A DNA stretch of 22,636 bases from a virus (IMGVR_UViG_2740892230_000001:1-22636), one strand, 5' to 3'; positions 1 through 2,131 are shown, numbered from the stretch's first letter. Numbers and translations are program-made. Notes: generated by a model not told the origin, from the sequence alone.

Positions 1-34
1 GGTTCTTCTGACGGGCGGCGGCACAGGGATGTGC
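1..34. repeat. Left copy of a perfect 34-bp inverted repeat (partner at 1164-1197); the window starts inside it, so it may extend leftward
   Basis: 1-34 ggttcttctgacgggcggcggcacagggatgtgc is the exact reverse complement of 1164-1197. Read on the plus strand it ends a frame with GGG TTC TTC TGA, the same final codons and stop as the antirepressor gene. Confidence 0.8.
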
Positions 35-48
35 AAAACGAAACTATC

Positions 49-60
49 GTGACATGTCAC
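49..60. repeat. 12-bp perfect palindrome GTGACATGTCAC; the 14-mer tcgtgacatgtcac recurs at 21917-21930
   Basis: Direct reading; self-complementary; second identical copy about 21.9 kb away. Confidence 0.7.
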
Positions 61-78
61 AGGCCGCTTTCGCGGCCT
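61..78 (-). terminator. GC-rich stem-loop after the small secreted peptide gene (weak U-tract)
   Basis: AGGCCGC / GCGGCCT 7-bp stem with a 4-nt loop directly after the stop at 86-88; downstream T-run is poor, so terminator function is uncertain. Confidence 0.3.
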
Positions 79-85
79 TGTTCTT

Positions 86-247
86 TTAACGAATGCCACC
101 GCCGCCCGGGCGGGAATCCGCAGAACGCCCACCGCAGCGGGAGCCGTCAGCGGCAGTATCGCTGTCGTGCTGACAACGACCGGCAAAGGCCTGAGTTGAA
201 GCTACCAGAGACAACAAAACGAACAGTGCAGCAAATGCTTTTTTCAT
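86..247 (-). CDS. Small secreted peptide, 53 aa: predicted signal peptide MKKAFAALFVLLSLVASTQAFA, then a 31-aa Gly/Cys-rich mature part
   Basis: Internal Met of track ORF 86..352. Classic n/h/c signal peptide with AFA-G cleavage motif. The longer ORF start would read through the terminator hairpin at 320-339, so the MKK start is preferred. Confidence 0.35.
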   Translation of the reverse strand: MKKAFAALFVLLSLVASTQAFAGRCQHDSDTAADGSRCGGRSADSRPGGGGIR

Positions 248-260
248 TGTGAAATTTCCA

Positions 261-288
261 TCTATAAGCCACCTCAATGTGGCGTCAA
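261..288 (-). promoter_or_regulatory. Putative sigma70 promoter for the peptide gene (TTGACG-16-TATAGA) with an inverted repeat in the spacer
   Basis: Minus-strand TTGACG at 288-283 and TATAGA at 266-261; GCCAC..GTGGC inverted repeat at 268-283; very short leader. Confidence 0.3.
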
Positions 289-319
289 TGAGTGTAGCAC
301 TGACTTTTGTTTCGTCCAC

Positions 320-339
320 AAAAAAGCCCGCGCTGCGGG
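320..339 (-). terminator. Rho-independent terminator of the two-gene operon
   Basis: Minus strand reads GCCCGC-AGC-GCGGGC followed by TTTTT, immediately after the TAG stop at 340-342. Confidence 0.55.
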
Positions 340-885
340 CTATTCCTTCCATTTATCAGAAAAAAGATCTTCTTCTAAAGGCATTGGTTCTGTTTTTGTT
401 TTCTCAAAGAATTGATAACTGATAGTGATTGCTTCCTCTTTAAACTCTTCTTGCTCAGTTATGTTGTGAGCATCTGCGTCAACAAAAAACATAACCAGCG
501 CATCACGATTGTGATTTACCGAATAAACTAAAAAGCAATCACTTGTTGGTATGCATTTTACTTGTACAGACGCTATATTTTTCCATGCATCCCAAGATGA
601 TTTTTTACCAGTGTGTTTTTTATCACTATCTTCTGGAATATAGTCTTGGTTATCGACATGAGTATGCCTGACATTTAGTTTAAGCATTTCTGTCGGACGA
701 GCAAATGCAGCATCTTTACCAAGAGATGGATGGTATCCCGTTTTCCAATACTGGGTAAAGGCATCAGATACTTTCTTCAGCTCAAGATCAGATGCACAAA
801 GGGCCGAGAAATTTTGCGTATGCAACACTCGACCCTTATATCTGACAACTTGATTTTTATCATTCTGCGACGCAGACGAACTCAT
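340..885 (-). CDS. YafO-like toxin-family protein, 181 aa (candidate type II toxin / mRNA interferase)
   Basis: Track ORF 340..912 trimmed to the ATG at 885, which has an AAGGA SD. Segments KLNVRHTHVDN and FLVYSVNH..ALVMFFVDADAH resemble the recalled E. coli YafO pattern (V.H.HL.N ... HLVY ... LLIAIL..H). AT-rich gene with its own terminator. Confidence 0.45.
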   Translation of the reverse strand: MSSSASQNDKNQVVRYKGRVLHTQNFSALCASDLELKKVSDAFTQYWKTGYHPSLGKDAAFARPTEMLKLNVRHTHVDNQDYIPEDSDKKHTGKKSSWDAWKNIASVQVKCIPTSDCFLVYSVNHNRDALVMFFVDADAHNITEQEEFKEEAITISYQFFEKTKTEPMPLEEDLFSDKWKE

Positions 886-1039
886 AATTTTCCTTATTGT
901 TACGAGAATCAAAGAAAGCGCGGGATACGCGACTTGCGTGATCTTTTGTCATAGTAACTTTTACGTACTCTACGCTTCCATTGAAAGAACGTCTTGCGGC
1001 AGCTTGCGCTCTACGCATCTGCAATTTTTCGTTTCGCAT
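860..1039 (-). CDS. 59-aa ORF overlapping the toxin-like gene start by 26 nt; candidate antitoxin or regulator (absent from the ORF track, below the length cutoff)
   Basis: Hand translation: MRNEKLQMRRAQAAARRSFNGSVEYVKVTMTKDHASRVSRAFFDSRNNKENYEFVCVAE, stop TGA at 860-862. GAGG SD 7 nt upstream of the ATG at 1039. Small upstream overlapping gene is the usual antitoxin position. Confidence 0.35.
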   Translation of the reverse strand: MRNEKLQMRRAQAAARRSFNGSVEYVKVTMTKDHASRVSRAFFDSRNNKENYEFVCVAE

Positions 1040-1113
1040 GACATTACCTCATATCTCATAAGTTCATTACACGGATTAATAAAAATGAAACCAATCCGTT
1101 TACCCTTGAGGTA

Positions 1114-1142
1114 ATAGTACGCTATTCACCCACAGTCTGCAA
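1114..1142 (-). promoter_or_regulatory. Putative sigma70 promoter of the toxin-antitoxin-like operon (TTGCAG-17-TACTAT)
   Basis: Minus-strand -35 at 1142-1137 and -10 at 1119-1114. A 9-bp inverted repeat TGAGGTAAT (1107-1115) / ATTACCTCA (1043-1051) overlaps the -10 and the SD. Confidence 0.3.
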
Positions 1143-1163
1143 TCTGTACAGAATTATTTAAAG

Positions 1164-1197
1164 GCACATCCCTGTGCCGCCGCCCGTCAGAAGAACC
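1164..1197. repeat. Right copy of the 34-bp inverted repeat; overlaps the last three codons and stop of the antirepressor gene and contains the hairpin GGCACA-GGGA-TGTGCC
   Basis: Exact reverse complement of 1-34. The hairpin is followed on the minus strand by TTTAAATAATT, a possible terminator for the antirepressor gene. Confidence 0.8.
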
Positions 1198-2131
1198 CTG
1201 CTTTGTCGTTGATGTACTCCGCGTGCGTCTGGATATCACGCAGGCATTTGCTCACACCAACGATGTAACAGAACATGGTGGTCAGCTCCGCCGCCGCGCC
1301 CGATACATCGTGCCCGTCTTCCTGTAACTGGTTCAGCAGATTCATCAGCAGTGAGTTCTCCGTCAGACCGAGAACACCAGACGGAGAATGAATCAGACTG
1401 CGGTAGCCGGGCTTCAATGGATAACCATAACATTTTGTCTGTGTTTTAATTGCCTCACGAAGCGCATCTAACATCTTGACTGCCACTTCATCATTCTCTG
1501 ATGCAGATCCAGCAGGGAGATACTCCCCTTCAAGCGGAACCCGAGCAACAAGAGACAACGCTTCGGCAAATTGATCTTCACCAATTTCTTTGTACGAACA
1601 GCCAAAATGAGATTTCAGTGACGACCACATGGTGATCATCGCCTTAGCCTGTTTTTCTTTTGGCAGAGACTGACCGCGACTCATGACGAGTTGTTTAATG
1701 GCTTCCTGCTGTTCAGTTGTTATTTTACCCGGCAACGCCTTTTTAGCTTTGCGTGGGTTAACCACATGGCCTTTAGTCCAGTACTCGTAGAGCACATCGT
1801 CACACTCTTCCTGATACTGGATTACCTTGTCGCGGATTTCAGGGCGGACTTTGTTAGGGCTGATGGTTTGCAGCCAACCTGCAAGTTTGCGTAAAGCAAG
1901 ACAGATAACCAGACGACGCTGAGTATCACCGGGGAGCTGAATGGTCATTTCGACCATGCAGCTCTTAAAGCGTTGTTGCAACTTGCGGAACTGCGTTTTC
2001 CAGTCCAGCCCCATACCTTCAACGACTGGTTTCATTGGGGTGTATGGTTCGCCGTTATGATTGACAACATAAAGCTCTGCGCCGTGGAATGGCACGTTGA
2101 TAGTAGATACCGCTGTTGCTATACTCGTCAT
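1187..2131 (-). CDS. Phage antirepressor (Ant-like), 314 aa
   Basis: N-terminus NVPFHGAELYVVNHNGEPYTPMKPVVEGMGLDWKTQFRKL fits the phage antirepressor N-terminal family as I recall it. Lies directly downstream of an Arc-like gene as in P22 immI. AGGAA SD 7 nt upstream. Confidence 0.6.
   Translation of the reverse strand: MTSIATAVSTINVPFHGAELYVVNHNGEPYTPMKPVVEGMGLDWKTQFRKLQQRFKSCMVEMTIQLPGDTQRRLVICLALRKLAGWLQTISPNKVRPEIRDKVIQYQEECDDVLYEYWTKGHVVNPRKAKKALPGKITTEQQEAIKQLVMSRGQSLPKEKQAKAMITMWSSLKSHFGCSYKEIGEDQFAEALSLVARVPLEGEYLPAGSASENDEVAVKMLDALREAIKTQTKCYGYPLKPGYRSLIHSPSGVLGLTENSLLMNLLNQLQEDGHDVSGAAAELTTMFCYIVGVSKCLRDIQTHAEYINDKAGFF
2097..2125 (+). promoter_or_regulatory. Strong sigma70-like promoter on the antisense strand inside the 5' end of the antirepressor gene (TTGATA-17-TATACT)
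   Basis: TTGATA at 2097-2102, 17-nt spacer, TATACT at 2120-2125; predicted start near 2132, at the antirepressor start codon. Confidence 0.4.

Follow-up and report, generated by a model that had tools for sequence, protein, structure and literature searches.

A moron is a gene that carries its own promoter and terminator and is set between conserved phage genes. Among envelope proteins made by phages, the lipoproteins Llp of T5 and Cor of phi80 and N15 block FhuA, Sp of T4 inhibits the gp5 lysozyme, and Ltp of TP-J34 is also an envelope-located superinfection-exclusion protein. The locus described here lies in a stretch of 22,636 nucleotides (IMGVR_UViG_2740892230_000001:1-22636, hereafter the window) whose source is TL-2011b, an epsilon15/phiV10-like temperate podophage of Escherichia. 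It centers on a minus-strand gene of 53 codons (86..247; ATG 247-245, TAA 88-86), the product of which translates as MKKAFAALFVLLSLVASTQAFA up to the predicted cleavage point and GRCQHDSDTAADGSRCGGRSADSRPGGGGIR beyond it. The explanation that we favor overall, and consider probable, is that of a mobile moron unit with its own promoter, whose product would be an exported, disulfide-containing peptide that binds a component of the cell envelope. Our confidence in the structural and genetic description of the locus is high; in the specific reading of the product, as a disulfide-closed periplasmic peptide that would bind an envelope ligand or an incoming envelope-active protein, it is low.

The gene is already annotated and is a member of a named family of no demonstrated function; in kind it is an ordinary moron. 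TL-2011b records carry the 53-aa ORF as gp43, "putative transmembrane anchored protein," proteins 100% identical to the peptide already bear the name "transmembrane anchored protein," and residues 1-53 align with profile positions 1-53 of PHROG 14503 ("membrane associated protein," moron category) at E = 2.3e-40. A preliminary description, made from the DNA alone, had written the two-cysteine, 53-aa ORF and its 31-aa mature part exactly as they translate, and a homology search returned 57 close relatives, from Enterobacterales, in the first instance and 877 clusters at the profile level, where the range extends to Rhizobiales and Pseudomonas; an exhaustive HMM search of 1.84 billion representatives gave 350 clusters at 50% identity. 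Pfam holds no family for the peptide at E ≤ 1, NCBIfam and PADLOC profile scans of it gave nothing significant, and a literature search on the protein name and on the motif DGSRCGG found no papers. In a study of the related phage phiv142-3, the peptide gene is orf11 and is absent from the listed serum-induced genes; the neighboring orf10 (L004 2943-3101), directly upstream of the peptide module, was the gene studied and was reported to be induced 2^4.12-fold in chicken serum and to contribute to serum resistance and colonization (PMC7724020). What is new here is the corrected assignment of the promoter and hairpin, together with the recognition of a widespread mini-domain that has no model.

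The peptide family is under strong selection. Across a 25-codon core, enteric loci show saturation at synonymous sites (pS 0.6-1.0) with very little change at nonsynonymous sites (pN 0-0.1); in the comparison of loci L007 and L012, pS is 0.76 and pN is 0.00. Together with the PHROG match (E = 2e-40) and a covarying hairpin described below, these values place the gene beyond chance, and the earlier proposal of a separate, bounded cargo gene is borne out. The 53-aa start is likewise upheld, since N-terminal extensions vary in length and sequence among records and cross the upstream terminator. An 88-aa ORF (86..352, minus strand) does keep its frame open across the minus-strand terminator at 341-325, as had been pointed out, but the longer form is not the annotated one, the TL-2011b CDS being the 53-aa form already. 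Extended forms of 71, 76, 77, 85, and 93 aa come from other gene callers. We rejected the 88-aa ORF as a product, and regard it as an artefact, because such extensions are unconserved and the terminator is crossed.

Window positions 48 to 341 (minus strand, 294 bp) hold, in order, a terminator, a proposed promoter, a 5' hairpin, the CDS, and a second terminator, and would thus constitute a self-contained prophage cargo unit. Its upstream edge is an intrinsic terminator (325..341, minus strand) that ends the preceding YafO-like cassette and is strong, with a 7-bp stem containing six GC pairs (AGCCCGC-AGC-GCGGGCT) followed by TTTTTT. In IMG/VR loci that encode an identical peptide, homology starts at or just upstream of this hairpin; in 80 such loci, 10 mutually unrelated classes can be told apart by the 400 nt that precede the block, and the cargo includes DUF4760, DUF2335, two cassettes with YafO-like toxins, and several unknown or membrane proteins. 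A constant block beside variable upstream cargo implies that the gene is the constant element next to a hotspot downstream of the antirepressor gene. With a probe of 306 nt (window 40-345), 533 of 5,426 complete E. coli genomes gave a match, and in 422 of these the coverage was ≥80%; roughly 8 to 10% of complete E. coli genomes carry the module. The gene is intact in phiv142-3, EC.W1-9, and HEMP4, and only a remnant is present in phiV10 and the O157 typing phages. Base composition also differs across the region: the CDS has a GC content of 58% (70% in its mature part), the YafO-like gene next to it has 38%, and the window as a whole has 48%.

Two observations concern the variable side of this boundary. 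The slot between ant and the peptide gene holds at least 10 unrelated gene sets in loci L026 to L105, none of which matches PADLOC, and these cargo genes may be uncharacterized defense or accessory genes. In phiV10 (L003 2560-2660), the last ~25 nt of the peptide gene are all that is left, and they adjoin the 3' end of ant with nothing in between. The breakpoint falls at CCGCCGCCCG, a microhomology that both corresponding sites in the window have (about 86-110 and 1177-1197), and PhiV10p22, annotated at 29 aa, looks like what a deletion left behind.

At the other edge, the preliminary description had placed a stem-loop downstream of the gene. The stem-loop is present (GGCCGC-TTTC-GCGGCC, 61..78, plus strand), but its T-run is on the plus strand, which makes it primarily the terminator of the converging operon; as a GC-rich 3' hairpin (78-61), it is also where the peptide mRNA would end. 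The hairpin recurs in phiv142-3, EC.W1-9, phiV10, and a Klebsiella prophage, and Cronobacter prophages have an equivalent but different one. Just beyond this convergent terminator, at 48-59, lies a perfect 12-bp palindrome, GTGACATGTCAC, which phiv142-3, phiV10, and Cronobacter prophages share and which is near-identical in Klebsiella (GTGACATGTCAT); it might serve as an operator-like site where the structural operon ends.

The unit sits in a 1.13-kb cassette (35-1163) made up of the peptide gene, the YafO-like gene, and a 59-aa ORF. The cassette is flanked by 253-bp inverted repeats of 96.4% identity (window 1-34 and 1164-1416; L001 3782-4034 and 5164-5416), which correspond to the 3' ends that two different antirepressor genes (P22_AR_N, 314 aa; Bro-N, 231 aa), arranged tail to tail, have in common. 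The window is the reverse complement of TL-2011b 10794-33430, with the interior of the cassette flipped relative to the GenBank record. The full-length junction of the window type was found in 0 complete E. coli genomes, the best match covering 80% of the probe with most of the cassette side missing, and the GenBank-type junction was found at ≥80% coverage in 88 of 5,426; the flip is either a real inversion or a misassembly. The YafO-like toxin ORF (minus strand, within 340-1039; PF13957, E = 9e-6; PHROG 1651; 38% GC) would encode 190 aa from TTG 912, although a start at ATG 885 is more likely. The 59-aa ORF (860-1039; PHROG 6685) lies upstream of it with an overlap of about 26 nt, and the two form a putative toxin-antitoxin pair, for which PADLOC gave no match.

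The promoter probably needs reassignment. The preliminary description had proposed TTGACG (288-283) and TATAGA (266-261), separated by 16 nt and agreeing with the consensus at 9 of 12 positions, with an inverted repeat embedded between them. The repeat is there (GCCAC-ATTGAG-GTGGC, 268..283, minus strand); the promoter chosen around it is probably not the functional one, and the conserved -10 element lies upstream of the repeat. The repeat corresponds to an RNA hairpin of 5 bp, placed where the mRNA is predicted to begin. In the alignment, 99.1% of cells pair, compensatory double changes are seen at four of the five pairs (C-G to U-A, A-U to G-C, and G-C to A-U), and 0 of 500 shuffles reach the observed score; the signal collapses in slid controls, and RNAalifold predicts the same helix at 283-268. 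The closing pair is G.U in nine sequences, and such pairs work only in RNA of the sense strand, which indicates that the repeat acts at the RNA level, as a hairpin. The hexamer earlier taken for a -10 element (TATAGA, consensus TAYAYA; 261..266, minus strand) lies in the 5' untranslated region, immediately 3' of this hairpin, and has A rather than T as its last position; a T and three A's of this box are conserved, and its final base is A in every sequence, which makes it an unlikely sigma-70 -10 element. We rejected the reading of the repeat as an operator within the spacer because the -35 hexamer is unconserved, the supposed -10 ends in A, and G.U is tolerated on the sense strand. The TAYAYA box itself appears as CUACACA in most relatives, directly upstream of a weak Shine-Dalgarno sequence (GGA at -13 to -11 in the TL-2011b lineage), and persists even where the hairpin sequence of relatives differs completely (alignment A8).

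The promoter that we propose instead, P1, has the -10 element TACACT (296-291) with an extended -10 TG (299-298), together spanning 291..299 on the minus strand, and a -35-like TGGACG (313..318, minus strand) that is separated from it by a 16-nt spacer and abuts the T-run of the upstream terminator. Across 22 diverse upstream regions, A2 and T6 of the -10 are invariant and T1 nearly so, always 6 to 7 nt from the hairpin, with TACAAT, TAAAAT, and TATGAT as the equivalents in relatives. The extended -10 TG and the TGGACG were noted for the E. coli type, and the -35 is weakly conserved (TGGATG, TGGATA, and TTGCCA in relatives). P1 agrees with the consensus at 8 of 12 positions, which is below the scan criteria, and a promoter consensus scan of positions 1-1300 returned no promoter-like site. 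From P1, a weak sigma-70 promoter (318-313, 299-298, 296-291), the mRNA would start at about 284/283 and would open with the 5-bp stem-loop at 283-268, which would probably guard it against decay that depends on the 5' end. Hairpins of the ompA type at the 5' terminus are known to stabilize bacterial mRNAs; a search of Rfam with window positions 1-1300 returned nothing at E ≤ 1.

The competing account that survives best denies the gene a promoter of its own. The peptide would then be encoded by the last gene of an ant-cargo transcript that reads through the terminator at 341-325, and it would be a product of lytic growth or of the time of induction, not of lysogeny. In every E. coli-type locus examined, the peptide gene indeed points the same way as ant and the cargo genes, each of the two candidate promoters is weak, and the hairpin would also be present in a read-through RNA. 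Nevertheless, the terminator at 341-325 is strong and has been retained as part of the module, the spacing of the TAnnnT box to the hairpin is conserved across divergent relatives, including in loci that lack a co-directional upstream gene, and elsewhere the gene is found behind other partners or by itself. We therefore consider read-through expression unlikely and prefer transcription from P1.

The first 22 codons (182..247, minus strand) have the layout of a signal peptide, with an n-region MKK, an uncharged h-region AFAALFVLLSLVA, and a c-region TQAFA that ends in A20-F-A22/G23, where the slash marks the predicted signal peptidase I cut after A22. This call is a rule-based check of n/h/c organization and of the residues at -3 and -1, as distinct from a predictor score. 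All of the features expected of a Sec/signal peptidase I substrate are present, in agreement with the signal peptide claimed earlier, and they are kept across the family: among 88 members, position -3 is Ala, Ser, or Val in 87, position -1 is Ala or Ser in 86, and position +1 is Gly in 86. AlphaFold2 (AF2) models a confident helix over residues 2-16/22, the region of the signal peptide, and in alignments the signal-peptide sequence varies freely while the mature part stays conserved. A lipobox ([LVI][ASTVI][GAS]C with Cys at +1) was looked for in the peptide and is absent, C25 being preceded by A-G-R; among the 88 members, the residue preceding the first Cys is N, P, or R. The reading as a lipoprotein processed by signal peptidase II was rejected for this lack of a lipobox, and some distant relatives have a true lipobox upstream of the domain. 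By these rules, the precursor would be exported by Sec and cut by signal peptidase I after AFA22, which would release a hydrophilic 31-aa peptide of 3058.4 Da into the periplasm, and the invariant C25 and C38 would most likely be joined by a DsbA-made disulfide that closes a loop of 12 residues.

If the N-terminus were instead left uncleaved, it would anchor a mini-protein of type II topology (N-in/C-out) in the inner membrane, where the product would act on the periplasmic side. Such a topology is what the name "transmembrane anchored protein" in the databases implies, and because the domain of relatives is often tethered by a lipobox Cys or an adjacent transmembrane helix, a membrane-proximal site seems compatible with function. 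Against it, the A-x-A/G pattern, accompanied by a positive n-region, is retained in about 86 of 88 relatives, for which a product that is never cleaved offers no ready explanation, and the hydrophobic core of the peptide is short, at about 13 to 14 residues; we regard permanent anchoring as quite unlikely and prefer the cleaved form.

The mature peptide (codons 23-53; 89..181, minus strand) has a predicted length of 31 aa, a monoisotopic mass of 3058.36 Da, and a pI of about 8, and is rich in Cys, Gly, Arg, and Asp (five Arg, four Asp, eight Gly, and two Cys). Its core, C25-x12-C38-G-x-R41-x4-R46-P-G-G49, is encoded at nt 101-175. Eight positions are invariant in 88 sequences (C25, A32, S36, C38, R41, R46, G48, and G49), and the 27-residue consensus reads G-x-C-x4-D-x-A-x-DGS-x-CG-x-R-[SA][AS]-x-x-R-P-GG. 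Of the mature part as it was first described, the two cysteines are therefore a family feature, but the Gly-rich tail is conserved only as PGG. With 19 sequences, AF2 gave a pLDDT of about 45 to 60 for the mature part; with 88, the confidence for residues 21-50 became moderate, at about 71 to 76, and the model shows a compact loop that has a single beta-bridge and otherwise hardly any secondary structure. Foldseek found 0 matches to the AF2 model in the PDB, and a sequence-profile search of the PDB returned nothing even at E ≤ 10.

Longer relatives carry the core in two positions: directly after a signal peptide or lipobox Cys, at times followed by a transmembrane helix and a cytoplasmic domain, or at the extreme C-terminus in one to three copies. 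In 10 long relatives searched against Pfam at E ≤ 0.1, the motif was not covered by any match; in all 91, searched at E ≤ 0.001, only seven unrelated families were returned, the domains including SH3_3 (in three), PG_binding_1 (in two), PG_binding_2 (in two), and a pilus N-terminal domain (in one), so that co-occurrence with peptidoglycan-binding or SH3 domains is limited to a few of the 91. The positions of the core and its partner domains point to an extracytoplasmic, envelope-associated module. In some long relatives, the order is signal peptide, domain, transmembrane helix, and then motif, which formally places the motif in the cytoplasm, unless such proteins are gene fusions in which the apparent transmembrane helix is the peptide's own signal sequence. 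From this architecture, the 27-aa core appears to be a widespread extracytoplasmic mini-domain without a Pfam model.

In the distant relatives P0121, P0140, P0156, P0182, P0189, and P0201, the motif takes a four-Cys form, C-P-C-P-Y...NGS-x-CG-x-RSAYS-x-PGG-x-x-P-x-C, which is present one to three times and is also without a Pfam model; P0201 has Pfam matches to SH3_3 and SH3_4, and P0182 has a stretch that is Excalibur-like by eye.

The carriers of the family are diverse. In Klebsiella, Cronobacter, and Pseudomonas prophages, the gene occupies the equivalent slot, between the genes for the last large internal virion protein and the tailspike, and in Pectobacterium and Dickeya it stands at the end of tail modules and adjoins MuF-toxin genes. 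One relative follows a lysis cassette and a RelB/YafQ pair; others are on Rahnella megaplasmids and on mobilizable plasmids of 3.1 to 3.4 kb, where the peptide gene is the sole non-mob gene annotated or called, as it is the sole annotated non-mob gene on a ColE1-type plasmid of 3.36 kb; one is in an apparently nonmobile chromosomal context, the bacA/ffh interval. In the lambdoid prophage L015, cro is divergent and is followed by co-directional cI, a Rap1a-like gene, the peptide gene, and a terminator, with gaps of 16 nt and 8 nt. The position downstream of cI is that of rexAB in lambda, and it implies coexpression with the repressor, which supports lysogenic expression of that relative.

The Rap1a-like gene of L015 is thus directly flanked by cI and the peptide gene. 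Rap1a is a periplasmic immunity protein against peptidoglycan amidases of the type VI secretion system (T6SS). Rap1a-like genes (PF18602) were found in two unrelated prophages, at 5618-5992 in L015 and 6711-7094 in L006 (E = 1e-11 and 2e-12), and these were the only two loci with one nearby; no constant partner gene was found across at least 10 genomic contexts.

Carriage on tiny plasmids, the position after cI, the diversity of carriers, and the fusion partners argue for an autonomous activity in the envelope, and against a virion or replication function as well as against a bacteriocin. A small, Cys-containing, Gly-rich product encoded on mobile elements, among them small plasmids of the ColE1 type that are frequent carriers of colicins, could otherwise suggest a Sec-dependent bacteriocin, microcin-like toxin, or signaling peptide that acts on other cells. 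No immunity, export, or lysis gene is consistently adjacent, however, even where the peptide gene is the only annotated non-mob gene of the 3.36-kb plasmid; in gram-negative bacteria a Sec signal takes its product no farther than the periplasm; many relatives have this domain fused to membrane or lipoprotein anchors; and one relative is in a core-like chromosomal context. Judged as a class II microcin, which would call for a double-glycine leader, a dedicated ABC exporter, and an adjacent immunity gene, the peptide has a Sec-type leader and, in at least 10 contexts or on that plasmid, no conserved partner gene. An action on other cells is for these reasons very unlikely. That the ORF is spurious, a mere GC-rich terminator or spacer between convergent operons, or that the 88-aa ORF is the real one, could be argued from its shortness, its overlap with a 73-aa antisense ORF, and the choice of longer forms by some callers, but is refuted by the comparative data, namely, pN far below pS, the PHROG match, a start context kept by hundreds of relatives, and N-terminal extensions that are unconserved and cross the terminator.

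Returning to the preferred reading of an exported peptide from a mobile moron unit, the free peptide would most probably bind a conserved component of the envelope, which might be peptidoglycan, another anionic ligand, or an incoming envelope-active protein, and binding would benefit the lysogen or the plasmid host, for example, by protection of the envelope or by superinfection exclusion. Our best guess is a periplasmic factor that binds or protects the envelope; of the roles suggested in the preliminary description, periplasmic exclusion may apply, and those of a bacteriocin or a signal are disfavored. A bolder version, which we think doubtful, is that the 27-residue unit is an unrecognized, widespread extracytoplasmic binding domain of Proteobacteria that phages and small plasmids deploy in a free periplasmic form; it would bind peptidoglycan or else neutralize an incoming envelope-active protein, such as the transglycosylase of a phage ejection protein, a T6SS amidase, or a colicin. 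If this were true, minimal factors of this type would form a new class in periplasmic immunity or superinfection exclusion.

Taken alone, the locus is unremarkable, an annotated hypothetical gene that behaves as a classic moron in a temperate podophage. What deserves to be kept is the family, with its peptides of about 50 aa, its near-invariant 27-aa two-Cys core, and its broad carriage on mobile elements; such conservation and mobility imply a selectable envelope activity that is independent of a partner. The 294-bp unit can be cloned directly and is a cheap, tractable candidate for screens of prophage small proteins for exclusion or envelope phenotypes.

Comparison with described systems places the gene as follows. 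It is a member of PHROG 14503, the "transmembrane anchored protein" family, with which it shares length, signal peptide, and the C-x12-CGxR...RPGG core; that family has a name only, without a Pfam or NCBIfam model or a solved structure. The Excalibur motif (PF05901), DxDxDGxxCE, likewise has a short Asp/Gly-rich loop beside a Cys in secreted bacterial proteins (here D-x-A-x-DGS-x-C), but the peptide has no Pfam match to it at E ≤ 1, and the spacing and the invariant CGxR...RPGG tail differ. The 5' hairpin resembles the stem-loop of the ompA 5' untranslated region in being short, covarying, and placed 6 to 7 nt past a conserved -10 element at the predicted 5' end of the mRNA; it differs in that the start of the peptide mRNA is predicted and in being without an Rfam match. 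Like Llp, Cor, Sp, and Ltp, which protect the host from further infection, the peptide is a small, phage-encoded protein predicted to be extracytoplasmic, and one of its relatives occupies the post-cI slot that rexAB has in lambda; unlike them, it has no lipobox and no PADLOC or Pfam match, and no sequence similarity to them was detected. The presence of the family on plasmids and at one nonmobile chromosomal site argues against a target specific to one type of phage. The nearest parallels in genetic organization are the classical morons bor and lom of lambda and those of HK97. The peptide is not homologous to bor or lom; it is far smaller, and a soluble periplasmic product is predicted in place of an outer membrane protein or lipoprotein. 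It shares with the classical morons a terminator-bounded unit of atypical GC content, reduced to a remnant in phiV10, and the type of site, at the end of a structural module beside a hotspot of variable cargo.
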